From the sequence record OQ174500.1: 64,000 bases of DNA; one strand, written 5' to 3'. A program made the position numbers and the translations under genes. This DNA comes from Escherichia phage REP1. Under the pieces are notes generated by a model. It saw only the letters and a program-made list of their open reading frames with translations, ran no database searches and was not told the origin of the DNA. Within the stretch, counting starts at the first letter, position 1. The number at the start of each line of letters is the position of its first letter. Shown here one piece after another: positions 9,486-59,990 of the stretch.

Positions 9486-9532
9486 GCTTTATAAATTTTT
9501 GGTAAAATAAACCAAAACAATGAGGATATTAA

Positions 9533-16094: not shown

Positions 16095-17054
16095 ATGATT
16101 ACCGTAAATGAAAAAGAACACATTCTTGAACAGAAATATCGTCCATCTACTATCGATGAATGTATTCTTCCCGCCTTTGATAAAGAAACCTTTAAATCTA
16201 TTACAAGTAAAGGTAAGATTCCACATATTATTCTTCATTCTCCTTCTCCAGGAACAGGTAAAACAACTGTAGCAAAAGCATTGTGTCATGATGTAAATGC
16301 TGATATGATGTTTGTAAATGGATCAGACTGTAAAATTGATTTCGTTCGTGGTCCTTTAACTAATTTTGCGAGTGCAGCTTCATTTGATGGTCGTCAAAAA
16401 GTAATCGTTATTGATGAATTTGACCGCTCAGGTTTAGCAGAATCTCAGCGACATCTTCGTTCCTTTATGGAAGCTTATAGTTCAAACTGTAGTATTATTA
16501 TTACTGCTAACAATATTGATGGTATTATTAAACCACTTCAGTCACGCTGCCGAGTTATTACGTTCGGTCAACCGACCGATGAAGATAAAATTGAAATGAT
16601 GAAGCAGATGATTCGTCGATTGACTGAAATCTGTAAACATGAAGGTATTGCTATAGCTGATATGAAAGTTGTAGCAGCTTTGGTTAAAAAGAATTTTCCT
16701 GATTTTCGTAAAACTATTGGCGAGCTCGATAGTTATTCATCTAAAGGTGTTTTGGATGCTGGTATTTTATCACTGGTTACTAACGATCGTGGTGCTATTG
16801 ATGATGTTCTTGAGTCTCTCAAAAATAAAGATGTTAAACAACTCAGAGCTTTAGCACCAAAATATGCAGCCGATTATTCGTGGTTCGTGGGTAAACTTGC
16901 CGAAGAAATCTATTCACGTGTAACTCCACAGAGTATTATTCGTATGTACGAAATTGTCGGCGAAAATAATCAGTATCATGGTATTGCAGCTAATACTGAA
17001 TTGCATTTAGCTTATCTTTTCATTCAATTAGCATGCGAAATGCAGTGGAAGTGA
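16095..17054 (+). CDS. 44: clamp loader large subunit gp44 (AAA+)
   Basis: 319 aa from ATG after GAGGAAA RBS (track ORF starts at upstream ATG 16080); Walker [18 protein letters not shown] motif. Confidence 0.95.
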
Positions 17055-17055
17055 T

Positions 17056-17619
17056 ATGAGCTTATTTGAAGATGATATTCAATTAAACGAGCATCAAGTT
17101 GCTTGGTATTCTAAAGATTGGACAGCTGTCCAATCTGCTGCTGATACTTTTAAAGAAAAAGCTGAAAATGAATTTTTTGAAATAATTGGAGCTATTAATA
17201 ATAAAACTAAATGCTCTATTGCTCAAAAAGATTATTCAAAATTCATGGTTGAAAATGCATTATCACAATTTCCAGAGTGCATGCCAGCTGTATATGCTAT
17301 GAATTTAATTGGATCAGGCTTAAGTGATGAAGCTCATTTTAATTATCTAATGGCTGCAGTTCCTCGTGGTAAAAGATATGGTAAATGGGCAAAACTAGTT
17401 GAAGATTCCACCGAAGTATTGATTATTAAGTTACTTGCTAAGCGGTATCAAGTTAATACAAATGATGCAATTAACTATAAATCAATTCTTACTAAAAATG
17501 GAAAACTACCTTTAGTATTAAAAGAACTTAAAGGATTAGTCACGGATGATTTTTTAAAAGAAGTGACTAAGAACGTAAAAGAACAGAAACAACTCAAAAA
17601 ACTAGCATTGGAATGGTAA
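17056..17619 (+). CDS. 62: clamp loader small subunit gp62
   Basis: 187 aa; matches T4 gp62. Confidence 0.9.
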
Positions 17620-17620
17620 A

Positions 17621-17989
17621 ATGATTGAAATTACTCTTAAAAAACCTGAAGATTTTCTGAAAGTAAAAGAAACTTTGACTCGTATGGGAATTGCTAATAA
17701 TAAAGATAAAGTTCTGTATCAGTCCTGTCATATTCTTCAGAAAAAAGGACTATACTATATCGTTCATTTTAAAGAAATGCTTCGTATGGATGGCCGTCAA
17801 GTTGAAATGACAGAAGAAGATGAAGTTCGTCGTGATTCGATTGCATGGCTGTTAGAAGATTGGGGACTGATTGAAATCGTTCCTGGACAAAGAACTTTTA
17901 TGAAAGATTTAACTAATAACTTCCGAGTTATTTCTTTTAAACAAAAACATGAATGGAAACTCGTTCCTAAATATACGATTGGTAATTAA
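17621..17989 (+). CDS. regA: translational repressor RegA
   Basis: 122 aa; matches T4 RegA. Confidence 0.93.
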   Translation: MIEITLKKPEDFLKVKETLTRMGIANNKDKVLYQSCHILQKKGLYYIVHFKEMLRMDGRQVEMTEEDEVRRDSIAWLLEDWGLIEIVPGQRTFMKDLTNNFRVISFKQKHEWKLVPKYTIGN

Positions 17990-22222: not shown

Positions 22223-22963
22223 ATGATTAGTGACTCTATGACAGTTGAAGAAATCCGTCTTCATTTGGGGCTTGCATTAAAAGAAAAAGATTTCGTAGTT
22301 GATAAAACTGGTGTTAAAACTATTGAAATTATTGGCGCATCATTTGTAGCAGATGAACCGTTTATTTTTGGCGCTCTTAATGATGAATACATTCAGCGTG
22401 AACTTGAATGGTATAAATCTAAAAGCTTGTTTGTTAAAGATATTCCAGGTGAAACACCAAAGATTTGGCAGCAGGTAGCATCTTCTAAAGGCGAAATTAA
22501 CTCGAATTATGGTTGGGCTATTTGGTCAGAAGATAACTATGCCCAGTATGATATGTGTTTAGCTGAACTTGGTCAAAATCCTGATTCTCGACGTGGTATC
22601 ATGATTTATACTCGTCCATCCATGCAATTTGATTACAATAAAGATGGTATGTCAGATTTCATGTGTACTAATACAGTACAGTACCTGATTCGTGATAAGA
22701 AAGTCAATGCAGTAGTAAGCATGCGCTCAAATGATGTGGTCTTCGGATTCCGTAATGATTATGCATGGCAAAAATACGTATTAGATAAATTAGTATCTGA
22801 TTTGAATGCCGGCGATTCAACTCGTCAGTATAAAGCAGGTTCTATTATATGGAATGTTGGAAGTCTTCATGTATATTCTCGTCATTTTTACTTGGTTGAT
22901 CATTGGTGGAATACTGGCGAAACTCATATTGTGAAAAAAGATTATAACGGTGAGTGGAAATGA
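22223..22963 (+). CDS. 42: dCMP hydroxymethylase
   Basis: 246 aa; matches T4 gp42. Confidence 0.95.
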   Translation: MISDSMTVEEIRLHLGLALKEKDFVVDKTGVKTIEIIGASFVADEPFIFGALNDEYIQRELEWYKSKSLFVKDIPGETPKIWQQVASSKGEINSNYGWAIWSEDNYAQYDMCLAELGQNPDSRRGIMIYTRPSMQFDYNKDGMSDFMCTNTVQYLIRDKKVNAVVSMRSNDVVFGFRNDYAWQKYVLDKLVSDLNAGDSTRQYKAGSIIWNVGSLHVYSRHFYLVDHWWNTGETHIVKKDYNGEWK

Positions 22964-23802
22964 TTCAATTCGTAATTCCAAGCTATCAACGCGTAGGGGC
23001 AGTTTCTGCCCTTGATATGTTTCCGACTGATTATGAACCACATATTGTAGTGCGTGAACATGAAGAAAAAGCTTATCATGACGCTTATGGGTCTAGAGTT
23101 AAAATTATAACTATTCCTGATGATGTAAACGGAATTGCCGGTACTCGTAAAGCAATTACTGATATGTATGCAGGTCAACGAATCTGGATGATTGACGATG
23201 ATACTACTATTCGTATGAGTTCAATGCGAAAAAGAGATGATCGTCGTTGCGTAGATAAAGTCAATCAATTGACTCGTGAACAGTTCTATGAATTGATTCA
23301 ATATGTTGAGGATGCCATGGATTGTGGGTATTATCATGGCCATGCTCGTCTACCTATTTTTAAAATTACTTCATCTTGGGGTAATTATCGTGAAAATTCA
23401 TATGGATTCACGAATACATGGTATGACCTCGGAAAACTTACGACAGAACAAATTGGGTATGGAAAAATTGATTTATGCGAAGATATGTATGCATTTCTCA
23501 ATTTAATTAATCAAGGTTATCCGCATTTGGCCTTGTTCAAATATCTGGTTGTATCTGGAAAAGCACAAGCTCCTGGCGGGTGCAGTTCAATTCGCAGTAA
23601 TTCTAAACATAATAGAGCGCTTGAGCAGATCAATAGAGAGTTTCCAGAGCAAGCTCGTTGGAAAACTTCTAATATTGAAAAACGAAAATCGTTGGGTGAA
23701 GAAGACGAGCCATTAAAGGTTCTTCGTATGTGTGTTTCACGTAAAGAAAAATCAGAAGCATTTCATAAGTTTAATGCTATTCATCCAATAGCAGTTGATT
23801 AA
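22960..23802 (+). CDS. putative glycosyltransferase with DXD motif (candidate beta-glucosyl-HMC alpha-glucosyltransferase), occupying the beta-gt position
   Basis: 280 aa; MIDDDTTI DXD motif; not similar to T4 beta-gt as I recall it. Confidence 0.5.
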   Translation: MIQFVIPSYQRVGAVSALDMFPTDYEPHIVVREHEEKAYHDAYGSRVKIITIPDDVNGIAGTRKAITDMYAGQRIWMIDDDTTIRMSSMRKRDDRRCVDKVNQLTREQFYELIQYVEDAMDCGYYHGHARLPIFKITSSWGNYRENSYGFTNTWYDLGKLTTEQIGYGKIDLCEDMYAFLNLINQGYPHLALFKYLVVSGKAQAPGGCSSIRSNSKHNRALEQINREFPEQARWKTSNIEKRKSLGEEDEPLKVLRMCVSRKEKSEAFHKFNAIHPIAVD

Positions 23803-23830
23803 TGCCTAAATTTATTGTGTTATAATTACT
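23797..23830 (+). promoter_or_regulatory. middle-promoter-like element upstream of uvsX
   Basis: TGCCTAAA (Mot-box-like), about 12 nt, then TATAAT. Confidence 0.35.
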
Positions 23831-23879
23831 CTATCTTTAACCAGTGAGGAAAATATAATGATGCCTATGGAAAAAATGA

Positions 23880-25061
23880 ATGTCTATTGCAGATTTAAAA
23901 TCCCGTTTGATTAAAGCTTCCACTTCTAAAATGACTGCTGAACTGACTACATCTAAATTCTTTAATGAAAAGGATGTAATCCGTACAAAAATCCCAATGC
24001 TTAATATTGCTATTTCTGGTGCGATTGATGGCGGCATGCAGTCTGGTTTAACTATTTTCGCAGGGCCTTCTAAACACTTTAAATCAAATATGTCTTTGAC
24101 TATGGTTGCGGCATATTTGAACAAATATCCTGACGCGGTTTGTCTATTCTATGATAGTGAATTTGGTATTACTCCAGCTTATTTGCGATCCATGGGAGTT
24201 GACCCGGAACGAGTAATTCATACGCCGATTCAGTCAGTTGAACAGCTGAAAATTGATATGGTGAACCAGCTTGAAGCTATTGAGCGTGGTGAAAAGGTTA
24301 TTGTATTCATCGACTCAATCGGTAATATGGCTTCTAAGAAAGAAACGGAAGATGCCTTAAATGAAAAATCTGTGGCAGATATGACTCGTGCTAAATCACT
24401 GAAGTCATTATTCCGTATTGTTACTCCTTATTTTAGCATTAAAAATATTCCGTGCGTTGCGGTTAACCATACAATTGAAACAATTGAAATGTTTAGTAAA
24501 ACCGTGATGACAGGTGGTACAGGCGTAATGTATTCGGCTGATACAGTATTCATTATCGGTAAGCGTCAGATTAAAGATGGTTCTGATCTTCAGGGGTATC
24601 AATTTGTTCTAAATGTAGAAAAATCTCGTACCGTTAAAGAAAAAAGTAAATTCTTTATTGATGTTAAATTTGACGGTGGTATTGATCCTTATTCTGGATT
24701 GCTAGATATGGCTCTTGAATTAGGATTTGTAGTAAAACCTAAAAATGGTTGGTATGCTCGTGAATTTCTTGACGAAGAAACCGGCGAGATGATTCGCGAA
24801 GAAAAATCTTGGCGTGCAAAAGATACCAACTGCACTACATTCTGGGGTCCTTTATTTAAGCATCAACCATTCCGAGATGCTATTAAACGTGCTTATCAAT
24901 TAGGTGCTATTGATAGTAATGAAATTGTTGAAGCTGAAGTTGATGAATTGATTAACTCAAAGGTTGAAAAATTTAAATCTCCAGAAAGTAAAAGTAAATC
25001 AGCAGCTGATTTAGAAACTGACCTCGAACAGTTAAGTGATATGGAAGAATTTAATGAATAA
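23880..25061 (+). CDS. uvsX: recombinase UvsX (RecA-like)
   Basis: 393 aa; Walker A GPSKHFKS; matches T4 UvsX. Confidence 0.95.
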   Translation: MSIADLKSRLIKASTSKMTAELTTSKFFNEKDVIRTKIPMLNIAISGAIDGGMQSGLTIFAGPSKHFKSNMSLTMVAAYLNKYPDAVCLFYDSEFGITPAYLRSMGVDPERVIHTPIQSVEQLKIDMVNQLEAIERGEKVIVFIDSIGNMASKKETEDALNEKSVADMTRAKSLKSLFRIVTPYFSIKNIPCVAVNHTIETIEMFSKTVMTGGTGVMYSADTVFIIGKRQIKDGSDLQGYQFVLNVEKSRTVKEKSKFFIDVKFDGGIDPYSGLLDMALELGFVVKPKNGWYAREFLDEETGEMIREEKSWRAKDTNCTTFWGPLFKHQPFRDAIKRAYQLGAIDSNEIVEAEVDELINSKVEKFKSPESKSKSAADLETDLEQLSDMEEFNE

Positions 25062-30087: not shown

Positions 30088-30118
30088 TTGCTTTATATTT
30101 ATTGTATAATTAATCTAC
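30088..30118 (+). promoter_or_regulatory. middle-promoter-like element upstream of gene 56
   Basis: GCTTTA box, then TATAAT about 12 nt downstream. Confidence 0.4.
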
Positions 30119-30144
30119 TAACCCATGAATTGAAAGGAAAAATA

Positions 30145-30663
30145 ATGGCTTACTTTAATGAATGTGCTCATTTGATCGAAGGTGTTGATAAAGCAAATCG
30201 TGCATATGCTGAGAATATTATGCACAATATTGACCCACTGCAGGTTATGCTTGATATGCAGCGGCATTTACAGATTCGTTTGGCTAATGATAAACCAGAA
30301 ACAAATCGTCATCCTGATTCACTTGAAACTGCAGGAGAAGTTCTTGCTTGGTTGCGAAACCAAGACGATTATATCGCAGATGAAACTCGCGAGCTATATA
30401 CTTCTCTTGGTGGTATGAGTAATGGTGAAAAAGAAGCTTCTGCCGTATGGAAACCTTGGAAGAAACGTTATTCTGAAATGCAATCCAAGAAAATTCAAGA
30501 CTTATCTCCTGAAGATCAGCTTGAAATTAAATTTGAACTGATTGACCAATTTCACTTTTTCATGAATAAATTTATTGCTCTTGGAATGTCAGCTGAAGAA
30601 ATCTTTAAACTTTATTACCTGAAAAATGCTGAAAACTTCGCTCGTCAAGACCGAGGTTATTAA
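30145..30663 (+). CDS. 56: dCTP pyrophosphatase gp56 (MazG-like)
   Basis: 172 aa from ATG after GAAAGGAAA RBS (track ORF begins upstream); MAYFNECAHLIEG... consistent with T4 gp56. Confidence 0.8.
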   Translation: MAYFNECAHLIEGVDKANRAYAENIMHNIDPLQVMLDMQRHLQIRLANDKPETNRHPDSLETAGEVLAWLRNQDDYIADETRELYTSLGGMSNGEKEASAVWKPWKKRYSEMQSKKIQDLSPEDQLEIKFELIDQFHFFMNKFIALGMSAEEIFKLYYLKNAENFARQDRGY

Positions 30664-30857
30664 TGGCTCGTTTAAATAAGCGTCAGCTTAAGAAAGCTCA
30701 TAAGAAACGTATTGACCAACTATTTAAAGATTATGACAAGGAGCTCGTGTGTGAGCTCTTAACTAATCAACTTCGTATGGTTGAAGTTATAGAAGGTCCT
30801 GACGAAATTTTTGTCAGTGAAGAAGCTTTAAAATTAATTATAGAGCATTCAAAATGA
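30663..30857 (+). CDS. hypothetical protein (soc.2-like position)
   Basis: 64-aa ORF. Confidence 0.5.
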   Translation: MARLNKRQLKKAHKKRIDQLFKDYDKELVCELLTNQLRMVEVIEGPDEIFVSEEALKLIIEHSK

Positions 30858-31027
30858 AAATATCCAAAGAAGAATTTATTAGACGTCAAAAAGCTTTAAT
30901 TAATTTACACGAGTGGTATGCTTATCAACTTAAAGTAGATAGCTCTAATATAAATGCTGTAATGGCTTTATATAAACAAATTCAAGATGAACACGAATTC
31001 CTGGCACAAGTTTTCATTGAAGACTGA
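30854..31027 (+). CDS. hypothetical protein (soc.1-like position)
   Basis: 57 aa; ATGA overlap; not in ORF track. Confidence 0.35.
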   Translation: MKISKEEFIRRQKALINLHEWYAYQLKVDSSNINAVMALYKQIQDEHEFLAQVFIED

Positions 31028-31035
31028 TATAAATA
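31028..31035 (+). promoter_or_regulatory. late promoter TATAAATA for soc
   Basis: Exact TATAAATA about 30 nt upstream of soc ATG with AAGGAG RBS between. Confidence 0.7.
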
Positions 31036-31066
31036 CACCTGTAATTAAACAATAAAGGAGTTTATT

Positions 31067-31303
31067 ATGGGTGGTTTCGTTAACATCAAGACCTTTACTC
31101 ATCCAGCAGGTGAAGGCAAAGAAGTTAAAGGTATGGAAGTTTCTGTAGCATTTGATGTATATTCAAATGAACACCGTATTGCAGATTCTCATTATCAAAT
31201 CTTTCCGTCAGAAAAAGCAGCTTATTCTGATGTAGTTTCCGATGCAGCAACTTGGAAAACTAAGAATGCTGCAATGTTTACACCTACAGAAATAGGTGGT
31301 TAA
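31067..31303 (+). CDS. soc: small outer capsid protein Soc
   Basis: 78 aa; VNIKTF...YQIFPSEKAAYS similar to T4 Soc; preceded by late promoter. Confidence 0.85.
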   Translation: MGGFVNIKTFTHPAGEGKEVKGMEVSVAFDVYSNEHRIADSHYQIFPSEKAAYSDVVSDAATWKTKNAAMFTPTEIGG

Positions 31304-39658: not shown

Positions 39659-39688
39659 TTTACAAACTCTTGGACCAGAGTATAATGG
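39658..39688 (+). promoter_or_regulatory. early promoter (GTTTAC, 17 nt, TATAAT)
   Basis: taGTTTACaaactcttggaccagagTATAAT. Confidence 0.5.
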
Positions 39689-39729
39689 TCCTGCGGAGTA
39701 TAAATCTTAACAACAAAGAGAGAAAAATT

Positions 39730-40203
39730 ATGATTACTATCGGTGAAATTAAGCGTGTATCGTCTGCATCTCGTTCTAAAGCTGCAGGTCGTCTAGTTGA
39801 AGTGGTAGGACTTCGTACTAATGGTACTGGTCGTGTTAAAGAAGTTAAAGTTCGAATCATTCCTAGTTCTGGAAAAACTGAAACTCAGTACGCTTACGTA
39901 AGTCCTAAATTTCTGGAAACTCGTGTTAGCTCTCATTTTGCTTCTGTTGAAGAAGTTGAATCCACTGAGTCTAATGCACAATTTAAATGGGCGTTGTGTA
40001 AAGGCGTTGAATTTGTAACTGATGAAGAATTCGATTATATTGATGATTTCGCTGGTCCAAGTAAAACTGATAGGATGTGTGGCTTCATCACAGACCAATG
40101 GGTTGAAGATGGTGAAAAGCTCTACAATATCGTATTCTTAGGTGACTTCCGGGTTGTTGAAGAATCTGAAATCACTCGTTATGCTTCTCCTCATAAAGCT
40201 TAA
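39730..40203 (+). CDS. hypothetical protein, tandem paralog
   Basis: 157 aa; ASRSKAAGRLVEV N-term and GFITDQWVEDGEKLYNIVFLGDFRVV C-term. Confidence 0.55.
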   Translation: MITIGEIKRVSSASRSKAAGRLVEVVGLRTNGTGRVKEVKVRIIPSSGKTETQYAYVSPKFLETRVSSHFASVEEVESTESNAQFKWALCKGVEFVTDEEFDYIDDFAGPSKTDRMCGFITDQWVEDGEKLYNIVFLGDFRVVEESEITRYASPHKA

Positions 40204-40212
40204 GGAATTATT

Positions 40213-40632
40213 ATGAATATTGTAAATCTCTCTACTGGTGATTACGTATATGTATCCGTTGCTTCTCGTTCTAAAGTTGCAGGAAAGCTGGTTGAAGTTC
40301 TTTCTGTAAGTGATCCAGTTTTTGGTCGTAACGAGGTTAAAGTTCGTGACGCTGATGGTAACATTGGTTATGTCTCAAGTCAGTTCATTGAGCCAGAAGA
40401 AAGCGCATTTAAATGGAAACTTTGTTCTTCAGTTTTAGTTGTAAAAGACCATAAATTCACAATTGCGGCGGCAACAGATGGAACTCCATGGACAACGAAT
40501 CAAGTCGCTGGTTTTATTTCGGACCGTTGGGTAGAAGATGGTGTCAAGCTCTACAATATTGTTTTTGCAGGCCAGTTCATGGTAGTTCCTGAATTCCAAA
40601 TTAAAAAATGGTGCGAAGCAGCTTTAGCATAA
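40213..40632 (+). CDS. hypothetical protein, tandem paralog
   Basis: 139 aa; ASRSKVAGKLVEV and GFISDRWVEDGVKLYNIVFAGQFMVV. Confidence 0.55.
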   Translation: MNIVNLSTGDYVYVSVASRSKVAGKLVEVLSVSDPVFGRNEVKVRDADGNIGYVSSQFIEPEESAFKWKLCSSVLVVKDHKFTIAAATDGTPWTTNQVAGFISDRWVEDGVKLYNIVFAGQFMVVPEFQIKKWCEAALA

Positions 40633-41237: not shown

Positions 41238-41650
41238 TGGCTATTAAATTTGAAGTTAATAAATGGTATCAATTTAAAAATAAACAAGCTCAAGAAAATT
41301 TTATTAAAGACCATACTGAAAACGGACTCTACGCACGACGTTTAGGTATGTATCCTTTTAAAATTTTAGATGTGGACGCTCTTGGGCGTCCAATTAAAAT
41401 TTTGTCATCTACTGGAAATTTAGTACTATCTTCTGGTAAAGATGTTTTGGATGAAGACTTTATTTGGCTTTCAAAAAGTGAAGCTGGGTTCTTTGATGAA
41501 GTGGAAAATCCATATCAGGCAGCTGAAGAGCAGGAAGACCCTGCACCAGTAATTGACCCATCTGAGTTTCCTTTAATGAAAATTACTATTGAAAATAATT
41601 ACCAAGCATGGTCTTTATATCAGATGCTGAAAGCTCACTTTAAGGAATAA
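41237..41650 (+). CDS. hypothetical protein
   Basis: 137-aa ORF. Confidence 0.5.
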
Positions 41651-41652
41651 TT

Positions 41653-41829
41653 ATGCCACTTTATGATTATAAATGTCAATTCAAAGACTGTGCAAAAGAA
41701 TACGAAAAAATCAAGAAAATTTCTGAAAGGGATACTGATGTATGTCCTGATTGTTATCGGCTGGCTGTTCGGTTAGTTTCCGCTCCTAAGCGTGTGAATG
41801 GCGGATTTTACGACTTGCTTAAAGGGTAA
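41653..41829 (+). CDS. small zinc-ribbon protein (FmdB-type CxxC...CxxC)
   Basis: 58 aa MPLYDYKCQFKDC...CPDC; tightly packed between flanking ORFs; not in track. Confidence 0.4.
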   Translation: MPLYDYKCQFKDCAKEYEKIKKISERDTDVCPDCYRLAVRLVSAPKRVNGGFYDLLKG

Positions 41830-41831
41830 TT

Positions 41832-42092
41832 ATGAAATATGTTAATCGTTCTATCGCAGCATTAGTATTAGCAGTATCTTTAGTAGGATGTACTGATGCT
41901 GATAATGCAACTAAAATTTTATCATCAAGTGGTTTTACTAATATTGAAATCACTGGATATAACTGGTTCGGTTGCTCTGAAAATGATTTCCAACATACTG
42001 GATTTCGTGCTATTGGACCTACCGGGCAGAAAGTAGAAGGAACAGTATGTTCTGGGCTGTTCTTTAAGGATTCAACTATTCGTTTTAAATAA
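41832..42092 (+). CDS. putative lipoprotein
   Basis: 86 aa; signal peptide with lipobox LVGC. Confidence 0.5.
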   Translation: MKYVNRSIAALVLAVSLVGCTDADNATKILSSSGFTNIEITGYNWFGCSENDFQHTGFRAIGPTGQKVEGTVCSGLFFKDSTIRFK

Positions 42093-42116
42093 AAGGCCTT
42101 CGGGCCTTTAGCTTTA
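42093..42116 (+). terminator. rho-independent terminator AAGGCCTTCGGGCCTT
   Basis: GC hairpin with UUCG loop + T-rich. Confidence 0.65.
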
Positions 42117-42137
42117 TGATTACTGGAGTATAATATT
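42103..42137 (+). promoter_or_regulatory. middle-promoter-like element upstream of gene 39
   Basis: GCTTTA box, 12 nt, TATAAT. Confidence 0.4.
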
Positions 42138-42158
42138 CCCGAAACCAAACGAGGATAA

Positions 42159-43979
42159 GTGATGATTAAGAATGAAATTAAAATTCTGAGCGATATTGAA
42201 CATATCAAAAAGCGTAGCGGCATGTACATTGGCTCTTCAGCTAATGAAATGCATGAGCGCTTTCTGTTTGGTAAATGGGAAAGTGTTCAGTATGTACCTG
42301 GTCTTGTTAAGCTTATTGATGAAATTATCGATAACTCAGTAGATGAAGGTATTCGTACTAAGTTTAAATTCGCGAATAAAATTAATGTTACCATTAAAAA
42401 TAATCAGGTAACAGTTGAAGATAATGGTCGCGGTATTCCACAAGCGATGGTTAAAACACCTACCGGTGAAGAAATTCCTGGTCCAGTTGCTGCTTGGACT
42501 ATTCCAAAAGCAGGTGGTAACTTCGGTGATGATAAAGAACGCGTCACTGGTGGTATGAATGGTGTTGGTTCTAGTTTGACAAACATTTTTTCTGTGATGT
42601 TTGTCGGTGAAACTGGCGATGGTCAAAATAATATTGTAGTTCGTTGTTCAAATGGCATGGAAAATAAATCATGGGAAGATATTCCTGGAAAATGGAAAGG
42701 AACCCGTGTTACTTTCATTCCTGATTTTATGTCATTTGAAACTAATGAGCTGTCCCAAGTTTATCTTGACATTACACTAGATCGTCTCCAAACACTTGCT
42801 GTTGTTTATCCTGATATTCAATTTACCTTTAATGGTAAAAAGGTTCAGGGTAATTTTAAGAAATACGCACGCCAATATGATGAACATGCTATCGTTCAAG
42901 AACAAGAAAATTGTTCTATTGCGGTTGGTCGTTCACCGGATGGATTTCGTCAGTTAACTTATGTGAATAACATTCACACTAAGAATGGTGGCCATCATAT
43001 TGACTGTGTTATGGATGATATTTGTGAAGACCTTATTCCACAAATCAAACGTAAGTTCAAAATTGATGTAACTAAAGCACGCGTTAAAGAATGTTTGACT
43101 ATCGTTATGTTTGTTCGTGATATGAAAAACATGCGATTTGATTCTCAAACTAAAGAGCGTTTGACTTCTCCATTTGGCGAAATTCGTAGTCATATTCAAC
43201 TTGATGCTAAAAAGATTTCACGTGCTATTCTAAATAATGAAGCAATTCTAATGCCAATTATTGAAGCAGCATTAGCTCGTAAATTGGCAGCAGAAAAAGC
43301 AGCAGAAACTAAAGCAGCTAAAAAGGCTTCTAAAGCTAAGGTTCATAAACATATTAAAGCGAATCTTTGCGGTAAAGATGCTGACACTACTCTTTTCTTG
43401 ACTGAAGGTGATTCTGCTATCGGATATCTTATTGATGTTCGTGATAAAGAACTTCATGGTGGTTATCCATTACGTGGTAAAGTTCTTAATAGTTGGGGTA
43501 TGTCATATGCTGATATGCTTAAAAACAAAGAACTATTTGATATTTGCGCAATCACTGGATTAGTTCTTGGTGAAAAGGCTGAAAACTTGAATTATCATAA
43601 TATTGCTATTATGACCGATGCTGACCATGATGGTCTAGGAAGCATTTATCCTTCTCTGCTCGGATTTTTTAGTAATTGGCCAGAATTGTTTGAGCAAGGA
43701 CGAATTCGCTTTGTCAAAACTCCTGTAATCATCGCTCAGGTCGGTAAAAAACAAGAATGGTTTTATACAGTCGCTGAATATGAGAGTGCCAAAGATGCTC
43801 TACCTAAACATAGCATCCGTTATATTAAAGGACTTGGCTCTTTGGAAAAATCTGAATATCGTGAGATGATTCAAAACCCAGTATATGATGTTGTTAAACT
43901 TCCTGAGAACTGGAAAGAGCTTTTTGAAATGCTCATGGGGGATAATGCTGACCTTCGTAAAGAATGGATGAGCCAGTAG
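42159..43979 (+). CDS. 39: DNA topoisomerase II large subunit gp39 (GyrB-like), unsplit
   Basis: 606 aa; GHKL ATPase motif EIIDNSVDE; Toprim motifs LTEGDSA and TDADHDG; single continuous ORF. Confidence 0.93.
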   Translation: MMIKNEIKILSDIEHIKKRSGMYIGSSANEMHERFLFGKWESVQYVPGLVKLIDEIIDNSVDEGIRTKFKFANKINVTIKNNQVTVEDNGRGIPQAMVKTPTGEEIPGPVAAWTIPKAGGNFGDDKERVTGGMNGVGSSLTNIFSVMFVGETGDGQNNIVVRCSNGMENKSWEDIPGKWKGTRVTFIPDFMSFETNELSQVYLDITLDRLQTLAVVYPDIQFTFNGKKVQGNFKKYARQYDEHAIVQEQENCSIAVGRSPDGFRQLTYVNNIHTKNGGHHIDCVMDDICEDLIPQIKRKFKIDVTKARVKECLTIVMFVRDMKNMRFDSQTKERLTSPFGEIRSHIQLDAKKISRAILNNEAILMPIIEAALARKLAAEKAAETKAAKKASKAKVHKHIKANLCGKDADTTLFLTEGDSAIGYLIDVRDKELHGGYPLRGKVLNSWGMSYADMLKNKELFDICAITGLVLGEKAENLNYHNIAIMTDADHDGLGSIYPSLLGFFSNWPELFEQGRIRFVKTPVIIAQVGKKQEWFYTVAEYESAKDALPKHSIRYIKGLGSLEKSEYREMIQNPVYDVVKLPENWKELFEMLMGDNADLRKEWMSQ

Positions 43980-44011
43980 TTTACTTTACCACAAGGATGT
44001 GGTATAATTAA
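43979..44011 (+). promoter_or_regulatory. early promoter (GTTTAC ... TATAAT)
   Basis: taGTTTACtttaccacaaggatgtggTATAAT. Confidence 0.5.
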
Positions 44012-44033
44012 TTGGGCAAATGAGGATATTGAA

Positions 44034-44237
44034 ATGAAATCATATAAAGTAAATTTAGAACTTTTTGATAAAGCAGTTCATCGAGAATATAGAATCATTC
44101 AACGCTTTTTCGATATGGGAGAAGCCGAAGAATTTAAAAACCGCTTTAAAGATATTAGAGATAAAATTCAATCCGACACCGCAACTAAAGATGAACTACT
44201 AGAAGTTGCTGAAGTTATTAAGCGTAATATGAATTAA
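44034..44237 (+). CDS. hypothetical protein (rIIA.1-like)
   Basis: 67-aa ORF. Confidence 0.5.
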
Positions 44238-44247
44238 TGAGGAAATT

Positions 44248-46425
44248 ATGATTATCACCACTGAAAAAGAAACAATTCTTGGTAATGGTTCTAAATCAAA
44301 AGCATTTAGCATCACAGCATCTCCTAAAGTATTTAAAATTCTGTCATCTGATTTGTATACAAACAAAATTCGCGCAGTTGTTCGTGAATTGATTACCAAC
44401 ATGATTGATGCCCATGCTCTCAATGGAAATCCTGAAAAATTTATCATACAAGTTCCTGGACGTTTAGATCCACGATTTGTTTGCCGAGATTTTGGTCCGG
44501 GTATGAGCGATTTTGATATTCAGGGTGATGATAATTCTCCTGGTCTGTATAATTCATACTTCAGTTCATCTAAGGCTGAATCTAACGATTTCATTGGCGG
44601 ATTTGGTTTAGGTTCTAAATCTCCGTTTAGTTATACTGATACGTTTAGTATTACTTCGTATCATAAAGGTGAAATTCGTGGTTATGTAGCTTACATGGAT
44701 GGTGATGGCCCACAGATTAAACCTACATTCGTAAAAGAAATGGGTCCAGATGATAAAACTGGTATTGAAATCGTAGTTCCAGTTGAAGAAAAAGACTTTA
44801 GAAACTTTGCTTATGAAGTTTCTTATATCATGCGACCGTTCAAAGATTTGGCTATCATTAATGGTCTTGACCGCGAAATTGATTATTTTCCTGATTTTGA
44901 TGATTATTATGGTGTAAATCCAGAAAGATACTGGCCTGATCGTGGTGGATTATATGCTATCTATGGCGGTATTGTTTATCCTATCGATGGTGTTATTAGA
45001 GACCGTAACTGGCTAAGCATTCGCAATGAAGTGAATTACATTAAGTTTCCAATGGGTTCACTTGATATTGCTCCATCTCGCGAGGCTCTTTCACTAGATG
45101 ATCGCACTCGTAAAAATATCATTGAACGAGTTAAAGAACTCAGTGAGAAAGCATTTAATGAAGATGTAAAACGATTTAAAGAATCTACATCTCCTCGTCA
45201 CACATATCGCGAATTAATGAAGATGGGGTATTCTGCTCGAGATTATATGATTAGTAATTCAGTCAAATTCACGACTAAAAATCTGTCATATAAAAAGATG
45301 CAGAGCATGTTTGAACCTGACAGTAAGTTATGCAATGCAGGAGTTGTGTATGAAGTAAATCTTGACCCTCGACTGAAACGCATTAAGCAAAGTCATGAAA
45401 CTTCAGCCGTTGCATCAAGTTATCGTCTGTTTGGTATTAATACAACAAAAATTAATATCGTTATTGATAATATTAAAAATCGTGTTAATATTGTTCGTGG
45501 ATTAGCACGTGCGTTAGATGATAGTGAATTTAATAACACTTTGAATATTCATCATAACGAACGCCTTTTGTTTATTAACCCAGAAATAGAATCGCAGATT
45601 GATTTACTTCCTGATATTATGGCGATGTTTGAAAGTGATGAAGTTAACATTCATTATTTGTCAGAAATTGAAGCTTTAGTAAAAAGTTATATTCCAAAGG
45701 TAGTTAAAAGTAAAGCTCCTCGTCCTAAAGCTGCTACAGCATTTAAGTTTGAAATTAAAGATGGGCGTTGGGAAAAAGAGGAATTATTTACACTTACGTC
45801 AGAAGCAGATGAAATTACTGGTTATGTAGCGTATATGCATCGTTCTGATATTTTCTCTATGGATGGTACTACATCACTTTGTCATCCATCTATGAATATT
45901 TTGATTCGTATGGCTAATCTTATTGGCATTAATGAATTTTATGTTATTCGTCCGCTTTTACAGAAAAAGGTAAAAGAACTCGGTCAGTGCCAATGTATTT
46001 TTGAAGCTTTGCGTGATTTATATGTAGATGCTTTTGATGATGTAGATTATGATAAGTATGTAGGTTATTCAAGTTCAGCTCAACGATATATTGATAAAAT
46101 TATCAAGTATCCTGAACTAGATTTTATGATGAAGTACTTCAGTACAGATGAAGTTTCTGAAGAATATACACGACTTGGTAATATGGTTAGTTCATTACGC
46201 GGTGTGTATTTCAATGGTGGAAAAGATACCATCGGTCATGATATCTGGACAGTAACTAATCTCTTTGATGAATTATCACGTAATGCTTCAAAAAATAGTG
46301 ATAAAATGGTTGCTGAGTTTACCAAGAAATTCCGTATTGTTTCCGACTTCATCGGTTATCGCAACTCTTTAAGTGATGATGAAGTTTCCCAAATCGCTAA
46401 AACTATGAAGGCCCTTGCGGCCTAA
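44248..46425 (+). CDS. rIIA: rIIA protein (membrane-associated, GHKL-like N-terminus)
   Basis: 725 aa, same length as T4 rIIA; position between 39 and rIIB. Confidence 0.9.
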
Positions 46426-50349: not shown

Positions 50350-51678
50350 ATGCAACTGAATAATCGCGATTTAAAAAGTATCATTGATAATGAAGCATTG
50401 GCTTATGCTATGTACACGGTTGAAAATCGTGCTATCCCAAATATGATTGACGGATTTAAGCCAGTTCAACGATTTGTTATTGCTCGAGCTCTTGATTTGG
50501 CACGAGGAAATAAAGATAAGTTTCACAAACTCGCTTCTATTGCAGGTGGTGTAGCGGACCTTGGATATCATCATGGTGAAAACTCCGCACAAGACGCAGG
50601 CGCTTTGATGGCTAATACTTGGAATAATAACTTTCCTCTGTTAGATGGTCAAGGAAACTTTGGTTCTCGTACCGTTCAAAAGGCAGCTGCGAGTCGTTAT
50701 ATTTTTGCTCGTGTAAGTAAAAATTTCTATAGCGTATATAAAGATACTGAATATGCTCCGGTACATCAAGATAAAGAACACATTCCGCCTGCTTTTTATT
50801 TGCCTATTATTCCTACTGTTCTTCTTAATGGTGTTTCCGGTATTGCAACTGGTTATGCAACTTACATTCTTCCTCATAGCGTTTCTTCTGTCAAGAAAGC
50901 TGTACTGCAAGCTCTTCAAGGAAAGAAAGTAACTAAACCGAAGGTTGAATTCCCAGAATTTCGTGGTGAAGTCGTTGAAATTGACGGTCAATATGAAATT
51001 CGTGGAACATACAAGTTTACTTCACGAACTCAAATGAATATCACTGAGATTCCGTATAAGTATGATCGTGAAACTTATGTGAGTAAAATCTTAGACCCAC
51101 TTGAAGATAAAGGCTTCATTACATGGGATGATGCTTGTGGTGAGCACGGCTTCGGCTTTAAAGTTAAATTCCGTAAAGAATATTCTTTGAGCGATAACGA
51201 AGAAGAACGCCATGCAAAAATTATGAAAGACTTCGGGTTGATTGAGCGTCGTTCTCAGAATATTACCGTCATTAATGAGAAAGGAAAGCTACAAGTTTAC
51301 GATAACGTAGTTGATTTAATTAAAGATTTCGTTGAAGTTCGTAAAACTTATGTCCAAAAACGAATTGATAACAAAATTAAAGAAACTGAGTCAGCTTTTC
51401 GTTTAGTCTTTGCCAAGGCGCATTTCATTAAGAAAGTAATTTCAGGTGAAATTGTTGTACAAGGTAAAACTCGTAAAGAACTGACCGAAGAACTTTCTAA
51501 AATTGATATGTATTCTTCTTATGTTGATAAACTAGTTGGTATGAACATTTTTCATATGACTTCCGACGAAGCAAAGAAACTTGCTGAAGAAGCTAAAGCT
51601 AAAAAAGAAGAAAACGAATATTGGAAAACTACTGATGTAGTTACAGAATACACTAAAGATTTAGAGGAAATCAAATGA
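50350..51678 (+). CDS. 52: DNA topoisomerase II medium subunit gp52 (GyrA-like)
   Basis: 442 aa; N-terminal AYAMYTVENRAIP...KPVQR motif; matches T4 gp52. Confidence 0.93.
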   Translation: MQLNNRDLKSIIDNEALAYAMYTVENRAIPNMIDGFKPVQRFVIARALDLARGNKDKFHKLASIAGGVADLGYHHGENSAQDAGALMANTWNNNFPLLDGQGNFGSRTVQKAAASRYIFARVSKNFYSVYKDTEYAPVHQDKEHIPPAFYLPIIPTVLLNGVSGIATGYATYILPHSVSSVKKAVLQALQGKKVTKPKVEFPEFRGEVVEIDGQYEIRGTYKFTSRTQMNITEIPYKYDRETYVSKILDPLEDKGFITWDDACGEHGFGFKVKFRKEYSLSDNEEERHAKIMKDFGLIERRSQNITVINEKGKLQVYDNVVDLIKDFVEVRKTYVQKRIDNKIKETESAFRLVFAKAHFIKKVISGEIVVQGKTRKELTEELSKIDMYSSYVDKLVGMNIFHMTSDEAKKLAEEAKAKKEENEYWKTTDVVTEYTKDLEEIK

Positions 51679-55367: not shown

Positions 55368-56153
55368 TTATACTCTTGAACCATATATTGTACCAACTTT
55401 AGTCCAAGATGGAGCATTACCAGTAACAGCTTTACCAGCAGCGCCGCCGTTATATTCTGATCCTTGACCGCGAATATTACATTTACCTCCTGCGGCACCG
55501 GCATCACCACCATTCCCGCCATTATAGATACCATTGACAGACCCTTTACCGGGCGCAGAAATAGTACCAGCAGTAGCACCCTGTTCCATATTAGCAGACC
55601 CACCAGCAGCACCAAATGGACGACCACCTCCACCGCCAAAAGTCAATCTCATTTGTGAAAAAGGAGAGTAGTATCCGCCGCCACCGCCGCCACCGCCACC
55701 TGCGATAACACCATTGTTATTAATACGTAATCTAGTTCCAATTCCGTTATTTATTGCAGTTCCTCCTGCTCCGCCAGCAGAGTTATTTCCACCATTCCCG
55801 CCGCGACCCCAAACATGCACGCCTGAATTGATATTAAGTGTCACGTATGCATTAGTTAATGAACTAGGAAAATCTAAGCAAGGTTGCCCAGCTGATGAAG
55901 AAACAATATTTCCTGTAATAGTAACAACAACAGGAGTACTACCTTGAGATTTGAGATAATTTATTAGCGTGTCTTTATTATATGAATTACTAGCGCCAAT
56001 ACTGTAATATACTTCTTTAGATTGCCCAGCCATTGAACTCATCCAACCGGGAACTGAAACACGAACTGCTCTCATCGCAGCATCCATCCAACGTTGTCCA
56101 GTTTCATTCACGGCAGATTCGCCAATCCAGCCAGGAACACCTACAATTGCCAT
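55368..56153 (-). CDS. 38: long tail fibre tip adhesin gp38 (T2/T6 type) with glycine-rich motifs
   Basis: 261 aa; several Gly-rich blocks (GGGGGGGGGYY, GGGGGRPFGAAGG, NGGNGGDAGAAGG) separating variable segments. Confidence 0.88.
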   Translation of the reverse strand: MAIVGVPGWIGESAVNETGQRWMDAAMRAVRVSVPGWMSSMAGQSKEVYYSIGASNSYNKDTLINYLKSQGSTPVVVTITGNIVSSSAGQPCLDFPSSLTNAYVTLNINSGVHVWGRGGNGGNNSAGGAGGTAINNGIGTRLRINNNGVIAGGGGGGGGGYYSPFSQMRLTFGGGGGRPFGAAGGSANMEQGATAGTISAPGKGSVNGIYNGGNGGDAGAAGGKCNIRGQGSEYNGGAAGKAVTGNAPSWTKVGTIYGSRV

Positions 56154-56183: not shown

Positions 56184-59100
56184 TTACATAAGTTTAGATT
56201 CAAGTTCTTTTACACGAGAAGAAAGTGTTTTCACAGCTTCAACCAGAAGAGCAATCTGGGATTGAGAAGAAACAGTGAGTATTTTATTACCCTTAATATC
56301 TTCAACTTCACGAACTGCTTCTGGTAAAACATCTTGCAGTGTTTGAGCCACAATACCCGCTTCAGTTTGAACAATTTCACCGCCTATATAGTCAGCTTTA
56401 TCATAGATTAAACCATCAAGCTGTTCAACCTTTTCAAGAGCATTTTCAATAGGTCTGAAATTAGATTTCAAACGAATATCAGAACGAATATAAACGTTTG
56501 GGGCATTTATATTCATGTCAGAATAAGTGTCACCCGTTTGGAATCTCATTCGGCGTGCGGCATTAGTAATGATATCAAGAACTCCGTCAGCGGATTGTTT
56601 AATTCCGGTATCATTATCACCAAATGCTATACTATTTCCACCAAGTGCGTTATTGATATTAATACCAAATGAATTTGTTTGATTAATACCAGCTACAGTA
56701 GCATTATTTACTACAAAGCGGTTAGCTCCACCTGGAGTTTTTTCAAAGTAAGCAATATAGTTAGTTTCATCTGCAATTTCAATGCGGTTACCGCGAGAAG
56801 CATCACCAGCATGAAATATTCTCATATTTCTCGGGTTAGCACCAGACTTATCAAAGTTAATACTTCCATTATTTTTGATGTTAAGGCCATTATAAAACTC
56901 TGATACCCCAGAAACGCTCATAGAGTTTGAAATAGTTACTTTACCTGAATCGATATTGATAGAAAAAGGTCTCAAGCTATTATAAGAACCGGAGGCTTTA
57001 GTTTTATCAGTATCGGTATTTTTATCTGTTAATAATATATGGAACGTAGTACCATCATTATAAAACAGAGCAGCTGCAGAGCCACTTTCGTCGCCGTTAG
57101 ATTTGTGACGGAATCCTATAGTAGTATTTGCCACAAAAGTTGCATTTGTAGAAATATTAGAACTACCTGCATCAAAAACGCCTGAGCTATTATTAAGAAG
57201 TTTAAAAACACGACCTTTAACAGTATCTACAGGAAGCTCTTCTACTGGTGATTGTGTAGGCCCATATAATCCATGAACTACTACTGAAGCGTTTTCTGAA
57301 GTGCTATATTCTAATGTAAGTCTATTTAAATAAGTGCCACAATTAATATAAACATCATACTCATCGCCTGAGGTATTAATATACGCAATATCTTTAATAG
57401 CATCTGTTTCGCGTTGCCATAAAACACCATTAATTCCTTTAGGGCTGTTATTACCTGAACGCAATACAATTTCATTAATTGTTGCTTGTCTAAAAGTACC
57501 AACGTTAAATCCAGAACCACCAGTAATTTTAAATTGAACTGTAGCCACACCTTGAGGCATAGTTACTGTTGCCAATTTATACCAACCGCTATCGACAGAA
57601 TAATTAATCCAGCCGGTAGTTACTTTACGGTCTAAAGTAGTGTTTAAGTTAGCAAAATTACCAGAACCGTTGGTAATATTACCGTCAGTTCCTAGTTGGG
57701 CATTTCCGACTTTAAGAGGTTTACTGATTGACACGAAATTATCGCTTATAACAAGACCGTGTCCATAAGATTGACTATAAAGCGATAAATCACTTCCAGC
57801 GCCACCAAGACCAACATACCACGATCTAATTCCAGCTTTAGAACCTTGTAAATAATTAGCAGAAGAAGATGAAGGAGAATCTAGAGTAAGCGCTGCATTA
57901 CGTTCATTAATAGTTACTGGACATATCATTTTAATAGTTTTAAGACTATTACTTACTTGTAATAATCCTGTACCAGATCCAGAATCTCCTAAATGAACAT
58001 CATGCGACATTTTAACTGTGCCGGTGTTCAGTTCTATTATCAATGGTCTAAGATTACTTATACCGCCTGATTCTCCGGCACCTTTAGGAGTCGGGATAAT
58101 ATAAAGATTACTTTCCGAACGGCGGAAAATAGCACCATATTCAGCATTCCAAATTCTTAATGCATCAGCTGTTCCACCAATTTTTACCTGTCCAGTAATA
58201 GAAGAACCACCTTGGACAAACAAACCATTAGACATGGTAACATTGCCACCAAAAGAACCTGTACCAGAGGCACTTATATTTCCGAGCCCGACAATATGTC
58301 CAGTTTCGACAGTTCCGTTAAATTTAAAGTTAACCGGACCTACTGTTTGACCTGACGCAGGATTAGTACGTTGAGCGTAGAAATAATAACCTTGTGAATC
58401 TGAAACTTCGAATACAGTTTCTCTATTACCTGGAGTTGAGTTAAATGAGTTACCCCATGCTTTAATGGTTACAGTATTTTTATTCTGACCATTACGAGTG
58501 CCTGCATCCCAGTTAATGGTTTTTGTTCCGTCAACACCTGTAGGCGCTTTAAATGACAAAGCATTGGTATTGTCATCACCTGATAAAAATAACCCGGTAC
58601 GCATTGAAATACGTTGGGTTGAGTCAAATGTACCATCTGCTCTAATAGCAACTCTATTAGACCCAGTTTTAATATCTAAAATACCTGGCTCAACAAGAAG
58701 TCCATCGCCCATGTTAACAGACATACGACCCGTGCCACGGAAATAGTGATACATTTTAGAATTACTGCTATAACCGATATGAGTCTGACCGTCGCCGTTA
58801 TTATTATTACCATCAATATCGGTGCGTGCAGTAAACATTGCTTGGTTGTTATTTGGGAAATCCCAAGTAGAACCGGAATCTCGACTATAACCAACCATCA
58901 ATTTTTTAGTACTATTAATACCATTATTCAAAATGGTAGCGGATGAAATACCGTTAGCCATCAGGTCATAAACGCCATCACGGACCCATTTAATACCAGT
59001 ATCGTTATCGCCAATTGCAATACCAATGGAAATGGCAGACTCTAAAGGATAACGCCCATTTGTACCATTATCAGGAAGACCTACTGAAATAGATTTACCT

Positions 59101-59990
59101 GCGGTAATACGTCCAGAGGTATCAAACGCCCACTGGAAAGACGAAGGTCCTACGCCGGTCCACCAAGAAATTTCTTGCGGCTTTCCCGAACGACAGTCAA
59201 CTATTTCATGGAAAATGCTAGAAGTATTTGAAGCCCGCATTTTACGCATGTAGTTCAATCCGTTTGTATCACGGTCAGAACCATCTGCTGGTGGATTATA
59301 AATCCAAGTAGGTAAAGAAACAATGTCATAACCCGTGTCATTATTCGGTATAAAGGTTTTAGAACTCAGGTTAATATTTTTTGTATTGACGCGCGGTGCA
59401 GAAACAAATCCAGTTGCCGAGTTAATATTACCTGAAGCCGAAATATTACCTGCACGGACTTCAATACTGCCATTATCTACAATAAAACTACCGTTTCGAT
59501 TAAAAGTCCAATATTTTGAATCACCAGATTCATTGATATATTGAATTTTAAAACTTCCTTCATTTACTAACGTACCAACAGAAAAAGTTCCATCTTTATA
59601 GCGTTGTTTAATTAGCGGATGGTATTCTGAAGTAGAAGTAGTTGAACTCAAATCGGTAAAGATAGGAGCTTTATTTTTATGTTGGTTTGCCCAAGCACCA
59701 TTACCAGCAGTTTTAGGTAAAAATTCAATATATTTTCCTGCATAAACAAACTGGTTTCCATTAAGATTATATGTTCCATTTTGTAAATAATCACCAGTTT
59801 GAGTGATATTTCCACTGATATTACCGCCAGCGGAAATGCTTAAGTCAATGATATTTCCTGAATCATCTTTAGTAAAAATTGTTCTATCTTTTAAGTTTAT
59901 AGCCAATTCACCTTCGGCTAATACTGAAGCAGCAGGACGTGCACCTGCGATTTTGCTTCTTTTAAATTGTATTTGTTTTAAAGTAGCCAT
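56184..59990 (-). CDS. 37: long tail fibre distal subunit gp37 with C-terminal intramolecular chaperone-like domain
   Basis: 1268 aa; N-terminus and central blocks match T4 gp37; divergent C-terminal part ending ...ALLVEAVKTLSSRVKELESKLM. Confidence 0.92.
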   Translation of the reverse strand: MATLKQIQFKRSKIAGARPAASVLAEGELAINLKDRTIFTKDDSGNIIDLSISAGGNISGNITQTGDYLQNGTYNLNGNQFVYAGKYIEFLPKTAGNGAWANQHKNKAPIFTDLSSTTSTSEYHPLIKQRYKDGTFSVGTLVNEGSFKIQYINESGDSKYWTFNRNGSFIVDNGSIEVRAGNISASGNINSATGFVSAPRVNTKNINLSSKTFIPNNDTGYDIVSLPTWIYNPPADGSDRDTNGLNYMRKMRASNTSSIFHEIVDCRSGKPQEISWWTGVGPSSFQWAFDTSGRITAGKSISVGLPDNGTNGRYPLESAISIGIAIGDNDTGIKWVRDGVYDLMANGISSATILNNGINSTKKLMVGYSRDSGSTWDFPNNNQAMFTARTDIDGNNNNGDGQTHIGYSSNSKMYHYFRGTGRMSVNMGDGLLVEPGILDIKTGSNRVAIRADGTFDSTQRISMRTGLFLSGDDNTNALSFKAPTGVDGTKTINWDAGTRNGQNKNTVTIKAWGNSFNSTPGNRETVFEVSDSQGYYFYAQRTNPASGQTVGPVNFKFNGTVETGHIVGLGNISASGTGSFGGNVTMSNGLFVQGGSSITGQVKIGGTADALRIWNAEYGAIFRRSESNLYIIPTPKGAGESGGISNLRPLIIELNTGTVKMSHDVHLGDSGSGTGLLQVSNSLKTIKMICPVTINERNAALTLDSPSSSSANYLQGSKAGIRSWYVGLGGAGSDLSLYSQSYGHGLVISDNFVSISKPLKVGNAQLGTDGNITNGSGNFANLNTTLDRKVTTGWINYSVDSGWYKLATVTMPQGVATVQFKITGGSGFNVGTFRQATINEIVLRSGNNSPKGINGVLWQRETDAIKDIAYINTSGDEYDVYINCGTYLNRLTLEYSTSENASVVVHGLYGPTQSPVEELPVDTVKGRVFKLLNNSSGVFDAGSSNISTNATFVANTTIGFRHKSNGDESGSAAALFYNDGTTFHILLTDKNTDTDKTKASGSYNSLRPFSINIDSGKVTISNSMSVSGVSEFYNGLNIKNNGSINFDKSGANPRNMRIFHAGDASRGNRIEIADETNYIAYFEKTPGGANRFVVNNATVAGINQTNSFGININNALGGNSIAFGDNDTGIKQSADGVLDIITNAARRMRFQTGDTYSDMNINAPNVYIRSDIRLKSNFRPIENALEKVEQLDGLIYDKADYIGGEIVQTEAGIVAQTLQDVLPEAVREVEDIKGNKILTVSSQSQIALLVEAVKTLSSRVKELESKLM

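Follow-up and report, generated by a model that had tools for sequence, protein, structure and literature searches.

The window analysed here, a 64,000-nt stretch of the Escherichia phage REP1 record OQ174500.1, carries gene 39 on the + strand together with the following genes and signal:

41653..41829, + strand, 39.2, encoding a zinc-ribbon protein, upstream neighbour in T4 order
41832..42092, + strand, 39.1, upstream neighbour in T4 order
42151..42155, + strand, Shine-Dalgarno sequence GAGGA, spaced 6 nt from ATG 42162 and 3 nt from GTG 42159
42162..43979, + strand, gene 39, unsplit, DNA topoisomerase II large subunit (GyrB/ParE-like), 605 aa plus stop
44034..44237, + strand, rIIA.1 (Pfam T4_RIIA1, 1.4e-33), which follows gene 60 in T4
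44248..46425, + strand, rIIA, downstream neighbour, in synteny with T4, RB32 and T2
50350..51678, + strand, gene 52, topoisomerase II medium subunit (GyrA/ParC-like breakage-reunion), 442 aa (Pfam DNA_topoisoIV, 9.4e-77)

The order goF, 39.2, 39.1, 39, rIIA.1, rIIA is the same in REP1, T4, RB32 and T2. Since rIIA.1 and rIIA follow gene 60 in T4, the REP1 ORF spans the whole interval from 39 to 60. A scan of 41600-44300 for consensus promoters and terminators returned no more sites than shuffled sequence did.

To define the extent of gene 39, we examined its reading frame and its start. The results showed one uninterrupted + strand frame from 42159 to 43979 with no internal stop codons, encoding 606 aa if counted from the GTG given in the ORF list. 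An earlier note on this DNA had described the same single frame and a 606-aa product; the frame is correct, but the start had been placed one codon (3 nt) too early. In T4 gp39, RB32 60plus39, T2 gp39 and the crystallised T6 gp39, the first residue is the Met encoded at 42162 (MIKNEIK). The Shine-Dalgarno spacing and these homologue starts speak against GTG 42159, which lies 3 nt from the Shine-Dalgarno sequence, and indicate that the true start is almost certainly ATG 42162, giving a 605-aa protein that begins MIKNEIK. Gene 39 would be translated conventionally from this single ORF into one GyrB-like subunit of ~68 kDa, with neither a second initiation nor a ribosome hop.

We then compared the REP1 protein with its relatives by BLASTP. 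REP1 gp39 was identical to RB32 "60plus39" at all 605 of 605 residues, and it matched residues 1-473 of T4 gp39 at 466 of 473 positions (99%). In RB32, '60plus39' is the annotation of the unsplit gene itself. REP1 residues 472-605 aligned with residues 27-160 of T4 gp60, from which the bypass had been spliced out, at 128 of 134 positions (96%), indicating that the C-terminal end of the REP1 protein is indeed homologous to gp60. The earlier note had assigned the "C-terminal third" to gp60, which overstates a share of ~22%. Against T2 gene 39, 604 of 605 residues and 96.5% of the DNA were identical. The best match in the PDB was T6 gp39 (8YLU chain C; 603/605, residues 1-605 aligned to 1-605, substitutions D173T and Q526H), and further T6 gp39 entries are 8YO1, 8YO5, 8YO7, 8YOD, 8YON and 9IMJ. 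The alignments to RB32, T2 and T6 gp39 were ungapped over 605 aa and colinear from end to end, with no insertions. At residues 326-328, T4 gp39 reads "LIR" and REP1 reads "FDS", and T4T has FDS as in REP1. We rejected this as a genuine polymorphism, as it is a compensated +1/-1 difference limited to the old T4 reference record.

To identify the domains of gp39, we searched Pfam and PHROGs. The Pfam families HATPase_c (2e-09), DNA_gyraseB (1.5e-13) and TOPRIM_C each scored above the curated cutoff, and the protein matched phrog_543 'DNA topoisomerase II large subunit' (2.4e-295). The ATPase and TOPRIM motifs were located as follows:

42321..42569, + strand, GHKL ATPase motifs: EIIDNSVDE (residues 54-62, 42321-42347), DNGRGIP (residues 87-93, 42420-42440) and GGMNGVG (residues 130-136, 42549-42569)
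43401..43418, + strand, TOPRIM acidic motif TEGDSA (residues 414-419, with E415), on gp39 in T4
43611..43634, + strand, TOPRIM DxDxD motif MTDADHDG (residues 484-491, with D486, D488, D490 and G491), on gp60 in T4, directly before the coding gap

The transducer QTK loop is present as QTKERL (residues 329-334). E415 and D486/D488/D490 lie in one frame and on one polypeptide in REP1, and the ATPase motifs are in the same frame; in T6 Topo II, E415 and the DxD residues are named as metal-binding (PMC11461880). The protein thus shows what is expected of the B-type subunit of a type IIA topoisomerase, namely a GHKL ATPase, a transducer with its QTK loop, a contiguous TOPRIM domain and an A-type partner gene. 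Full-length alignments of gp39 were also obtained with human TOP2A/B, yeast Top2 and S. pneumoniae ParE (E 1e-47 to 1e-59). The T2 and T6 enzymes consist of two subunits, and T6 gp39 and gp52 are active in relaxation assays, with structures solved by cryo-EM and crystallography (PMC11461880). In REP1, gp39 (GHKL ATPase, transducer and complete TOPRIM) would assemble with gp52 into an A2B2 ATP-dependent, DNA-relaxing type IIA topoisomerase, as in T2 and T6. ATP-dependent strand passage by the REP1 enzyme is likewise predicted from its 603/605 identity to the active T6 gp39.

We next asked what occupies the site at which T4 gene 39 is interrupted. The TOPRIM-coding region of T4, and of a minority of related phages, was entered by a MobA homing-endonuclease element of ~1.1 kb, which brought new C- and N-terminal extensions (CTE and NTE), its own target copy and a 50-nt gap protecting that target. 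The published element measures 1097-1106 nt, is accompanied by a target deletion of 55-75 nt, carries a HomR copy with 67-81% identity to the parental sequence and has its 5' boundary at residues 466-473 (bioRxiv 10.1101/2022.08.31.505936). The ~1.1-kb element of T4 comprises a 43-aa CTE on gp39, mobA, a 30-aa unique NTE on gp60, the HomR copy and the 50-nt gap, whereas REP1 has none of these. The T4 mobA gene is represented by a 114-nt remnant plus 60.1 (a pseudogene) in the old T4 reference record and by an intact 272-aa HNH protein in T4T.

In the DNA alignment, window positions 42000-43579 corresponded to T4 5490-3911 (96.1%) and positions 43644-44247 to T4 2793-2190 (99.5%). Between these blocks, megablast placed 1120 nt of T4 (2794-3913) opposite only 67 nt of the window (43577-43643). 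Positions 43588-43633 also matched the cassette HomR copy (T4 2899-2854) weakly, at 76% over 46 nt. These figures match those published for the element. The two features at the site are:

43581..43643, + strand, parental segment replaced by the MobA element in T4, codons 474-494, ENLNYHNIAIMTDADHDGLGS
43632..43637, + strand, empty bypass site, GGT (Gly491, 43632-43634) followed by CTA (Leu492)

The T4 sequence at the gap site is GAT GGA [TAG CCT ... TTG GA] TTA GGT, the bracketed part being the 50-nt gap, whereas REP1 reads GAT GGT CTA GGA AGC. The REP1 site contains no stop codon, no matched GGA pair for take-off and landing, and no UAG after a take-off codon. When the gap, the gap with its flanks and the entire ~1.1-kb element were searched by blastn-short, the 50-nt gap sequence was absent from the 64 kb beyond chance 9-12-mers. 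In six-frame tblastn searches of the 64 kb, the 272-aa MobA of T4T gave a best E of 3.7, with no extra DNA at the site, and the CTE gave a best E of 0.071 at an unrelated locus. The 30 aa specific to the NTE were not found by tblastn in the 64 kb, and the full NTE matched the native target stretch only: its residues 27-46 aligned with 43575-43634 at 70% identity, that is, with the native HomR-equivalent residues. A cassette relocated or decayed elsewhere, as in the Campylobacter clade, was rejected on the same searches, which gave only chance-level matches across the 64 kb. The absence of a gene 60 split and of a bypass element, which the earlier note had read from the ORF, was therefore borne out at the DNA level: 67 nt stand against T4's 1120 nt, and the gap, MobA, CTE and NTE are all missing.

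An assembly or annotation error, such as a cassette lost when the assembly collapsed, would also produce a single ORF. This explanation has no specific support. The junction is clean, in-frame parental sequence that matches T2 and RB32 apart from single synonymous differences, hundreds of independent genomes agree with it, and the flanking synteny is intact, so that we regard an artefact as vanishingly improbable.

To place the unsplit gene among its relatives, we searched the locus by megablast against a database of 50,697 phage records. The gene 39 locus matched 732 records, of which about 500 reached >=90% identity and about 490 reached >=95%, and nearly all were Tequatrovirus of Escherichia, Shigella, Yersinia or Salmonella. 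The 1117 nt specific to T4 matched 43 phage records, a number that includes several T4 isolates or duplicate RefSeq/GenBank entries. Roughly nine-tenths of the sequenced close relatives thus share the unsplit arrangement, making the empty allele the state of the large majority.

The direction of the change was assessed with outgroups. Human TOP2A/B, yeast Top2, pneumococcal ParE and E. coli GyrB were all contiguous across query residues 406-603, which span the region split in T4. The T4 interruption itself combines a homing-endonuclease gene with extensions specific to the element and a second, diverged copy of the target, and this structure is a signature of insertion. For every invaded clade, 'parental' genomes 96-99% identical are known (bioRxiv 10.1101/2022.08.31.505936). 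Against RB32 and T2, we found no co-conversion and no elevated divergence around the REP1 site, where SNP density did not rise. The opposite direction, in which split genes 39 and 60 are ancestral in T-even phages and the REP1 ORF is the product of their fusion, is allowed by the introduction of PMC11461880, which leaves 'gene-fusion or gene-separation' open. It is contradicted by the contiguous TOPRIM of every type IIA outgroup aligned, by the endonuclease gene, extensions and duplicated target copy that make up the T4 interruption, and by the rarity of the split state (43 records); transfer of the split into T2 has moreover been seen experimentally, as relayed in bioRxiv 10.1101/2022.08.31.505936. 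A derived fusion is effectively already refuted, and we give it next to no credence.

The earlier note had called the REP1 arrangement "ancestral, uninvaded". Because the outgroups are contiguous, the T4 insert is element-like, MobA transfer into T2 has been published and REP1 bears no scar of the CTE or NTE, this description is supported, and the literature, the rarity of the cassette and the parental type of the target agree with it. As a statement about history read from one sequence, it is well supported but falls short of proof. We hold with high confidence that REP1 carries an intact, uninvaded T-even gene 39 allele, encoding a 605-aa subunit with a gp52 partner, translated conventionally and containing an empty, T2-like MobA site.

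The same single ORF could also have arisen by secondary loss ('hit and run'), if an ancestor carried the MobA cassette and then lost it, whether through exact excision or through recombination with a phage whose site was empty. Manning & Atkins (bioRxiv 10.1101/2022.08.31.505936) described Aeromonas phages in which Topo2L has been re-fused, and T-even phages recombine freely, the REP1 window being a mosaic with no relative more than 97% identical over 24 kb. However, the re-fused genes that have been described retain insertions derived from the CTE or NTE, and REP1 has none. Its 63-nt target has the parental T2/RB32 sequence type, with 1 nt different from T2, rather than the cassette HomR type (76%); SNP density is flat around the site against RB32 and T2, and the empty allele is the large majority. 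We therefore consider secondary loss very unlikely. A perfectly clean conversion to the empty allele would have the same function and sequence as the uninvaded state.

To evaluate the uninvaded site as a potential MobA target, we compared 43581-43643 with T2. The results showed 62 of 63 nt identical, the sole difference being ACC for ACT at Thr485, which is synonymous. The segment is of parental T2/RB32 type and corresponds colinearly to the part of T2 gene 39 nicked by MobA. According to bioRxiv 10.1101/2022.08.31.505936, which reports Bonocora et al. (PNAS 2011), MobA nicks T2 gene 39 and, in mixed infection, carries both the split and the gap into T2. The same paper places the nick within HomR, ~20 nt upstream of the gap, and attributes protection from re-cleavage to the gap and not to HomR polymorphisms. 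From this second-hand nick mapping, the nick in REP1 would fall at ~43614. Since its segment is 62/63 nt identical to that of T2, an experimentally shown MobA target, REP1 is predicted to be a naive recipient that MobA could cleave and convert in mixed infection with a MobA+ phage. That REP1 instead descends from a once-invaded lineage by scarless reversion, or that the ACC at Thr485, close to the predicted nick, confers MobA resistance without a bypass gap, is hardly to be expected; if true, either would be informative on the arms race of homing endonucleases with their T-even phage targets.

We also examined the wider window for other homing elements. The best relatives over 24 kb were ~95-97% identical in a patchy manner, and the window is a typical mosaic T-even genome that is no copy of a deposited one. 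In a colinear map against T4 1-50000, in which ~46 kb are shared, every T4 homing-endonuclease element was absent from the window: the nrdD intron with its endonuclease (junction 3442/3443), mobC, mobB, segA, segF and mobA. segA, together with b-gt, is replaced in REP1 by an ORF for a 282-aa glycosyltransferase of the TAGT family, and T4 dam had no match anywhere in the 64-kb window. The ORF at 10912-11535, which lies between a-gt and gene 47 where T4 has an empty site, matched phrog_10820 'HNH endonuclease' (1.3e-94) and phrog_314 'homing endonuclease', with a sub-threshold Pfam match to GIY-YIG, and is a candidate endonuclease. A description of the window as "free of homing endonucleases" was rejected on account of this ORF. 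The missing T4 elements and the one candidate endonuclease of its own fit the known patchwork distribution of homing elements.

The unsplit gene 39 is already known: it is published, of T2/T6/RB32 type and the majority state among sequenced Tequatroviruses. It is the textbook counterpart of the T4 39/60 split and has been characterised in T2 as a MobA recipient and in T6 through structures and activity. For the annotation of REP1, these results call for a topoisomerase II large subunit of 605 aa with its start at 42162, with no recoding expected, in a two-subunit enzyme. Beyond correct annotation they have little significance, although they also flag REP1 as a phage potentially open to MobA homing as a naive recipient.

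Compared with known systems, REP1 is closest to T6, T2 and RB32, whose gp39 is likewise 605 aa with a shared start, the shared order 39.2-39.1-39-rIIA.1-rIIA and all catalytic motifs matching. The differences from these phages are synonymous or near-neutral only (DNA identity 96.5-97.4%; F70L relative to T2), and RB32 and T2 have an additional ORF between 39.2 and 39.1 that the REP1 window lacks. The Aeromonas clade 7 re-fused Topo2L of Manning & Atkins carries a CTE/NTE-homologous insertion at the MobA site, whereas REP1 has no insertion relative to T2, T6 and RB32. In the three-subunit topoisomerase II of T4, E415 lies on gp39 and DxD on gp60, so that the catalytic TOPRIM domain is split, whereas it is whole in REP1; the ~70-aa TOPRIM insertion of T4 is pendant and has a small effect on activity (PMC11461880). 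In contrast to bacterial GyrB, the phage enzyme is without the GyrB insert, and it is paired with gp52, a short, 442-aa homologue of GyrA; the phage enzyme relaxes DNA and does not supercoil it (PMC11461880). As in REP1, a single chain carries the GHKL ATPase, transducer and TOPRIM in bacterial GyrB/ParE and in the N-terminal half of eukaryotic Topo II.

Of the T4 homing-endonuclease genes in the syntenic region, mobB, segA and segF were not recovered anywhere in the window by tblastn. The mobB site measured 24 nt (window 9518-9541) compared with 861 nt in T4, and segA and segF, both present in T4, were missing at 22946-23891 and 30624-31296, respectively. The soc gene was kept at 31073-31234 but had diverged, with 57% amino acid identity. 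The group I intron and its endonuclease ORF that interrupt T4 nrdD (1035 nt, T4 44815-45849) were cleanly missing from nrdD of the window, mobC (T4 42917-43523) was likewise missing from the window, and nrdG overlapped nrdD at 4720.

2906-4723, + strand: nrdD as a single 605-aa ORF, with the junction at 3442/3443

We identified one candidate endonuclease ORF within a 594-nt segment that has no counterpart in T4.

10912-11535, + strand: 207-aa ORF flanked by a-gt (9533-10735) and gene 47 (11513-12532)

In PHROGs, this ORF matched phrog_10820 'HNH endonuclease' (1.3e-94) and phrog_314 'homing endonuclease' (1.4e-17), while its score against Pfam GIY-YIG (21.4 bits) fell slightly below the cutoff of 22.6. 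The ORF probably encodes a Seg-like, free-standing homing endonuclease; the corresponding site in T4 is empty.

The DNA modification genes also differed from those of T4, where b-gt (351 aa) and segA occupy the place of the following ORF.

22954-23802, + strand: 282-aa ORF assigned to the TET-associated glycosyltransferases (Pfam TAGT, 2.1e-10)

T4 b-gt used as a tblastn query gave no match in the window. Together, the replacement ORF and this result suggest that the hydroxymethylcytosine glucosylation pattern of REP1 differs from that of T4; the 282-aa ORF may be the T2/T6-type second-glucose transferase. The DNA adenine methyltransferase gene dam (within T4 16806-17709) had no counterpart, T4 Dam giving no tblastn match across the 64 kb, and the homologous blocks flanking the dam site were separated by just 22 nt (window 30103-30124).

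In megablast searches, the gene 39 locus matched other phage records in two pieces because those relatives carry an extra ORF of about 375 nt between 39.2 and 39.1. RB32 (ORF005c, 123 aa) and T2 carried this ORF, as did many close relatives, whereas it was missing from the window (41829/41832), from T4T and from other phages, among them sutha and fPS-2. An unsupported antisense ORF was also found here; in such AT-rich DNA it most likely arose by chance.

41819-42229, - strand: 136-aa ORF overlapping 39.1 and the 5' end of gene 39

Residues 326-328 of gp39 read LIR in the T4 reference (NC_000866) but FDS in the window (43137-43145), T4T, RB32, T2 and T6. At the DNA level, the LIR/FDS difference came down to a 1-nt deletion offset by a 1-nt insertion (CGATTGATTCGTCAA versus CGATTTGATTCTCAA). 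LIR in NC_000866 is most likely a mistake in the old reference sequence; it is also present in the T4 construct of PDB 8YO3.

The motB region spanned 1158 nt in the window compared with 522 nt in T4 and represents a local duplication or replacement.

39670-40203 and 40213-40632, + strand: two tandem motB-family ORFs (Pfam motB, 2.7e-41 and 6.4e-20)

The gp38 protein differed in type as well.

55368-56153, - strand: gp38, 261 aa (Pfam GP38 and Gp38_N)

The adjoining 1268-aa ORF (56184-59990) would be gp37. The gp38 of the window is of the long adhesin type, which we take to be a T2/T6-like receptor-recognition module, whereas T4 gp38 is of the short chaperone type.
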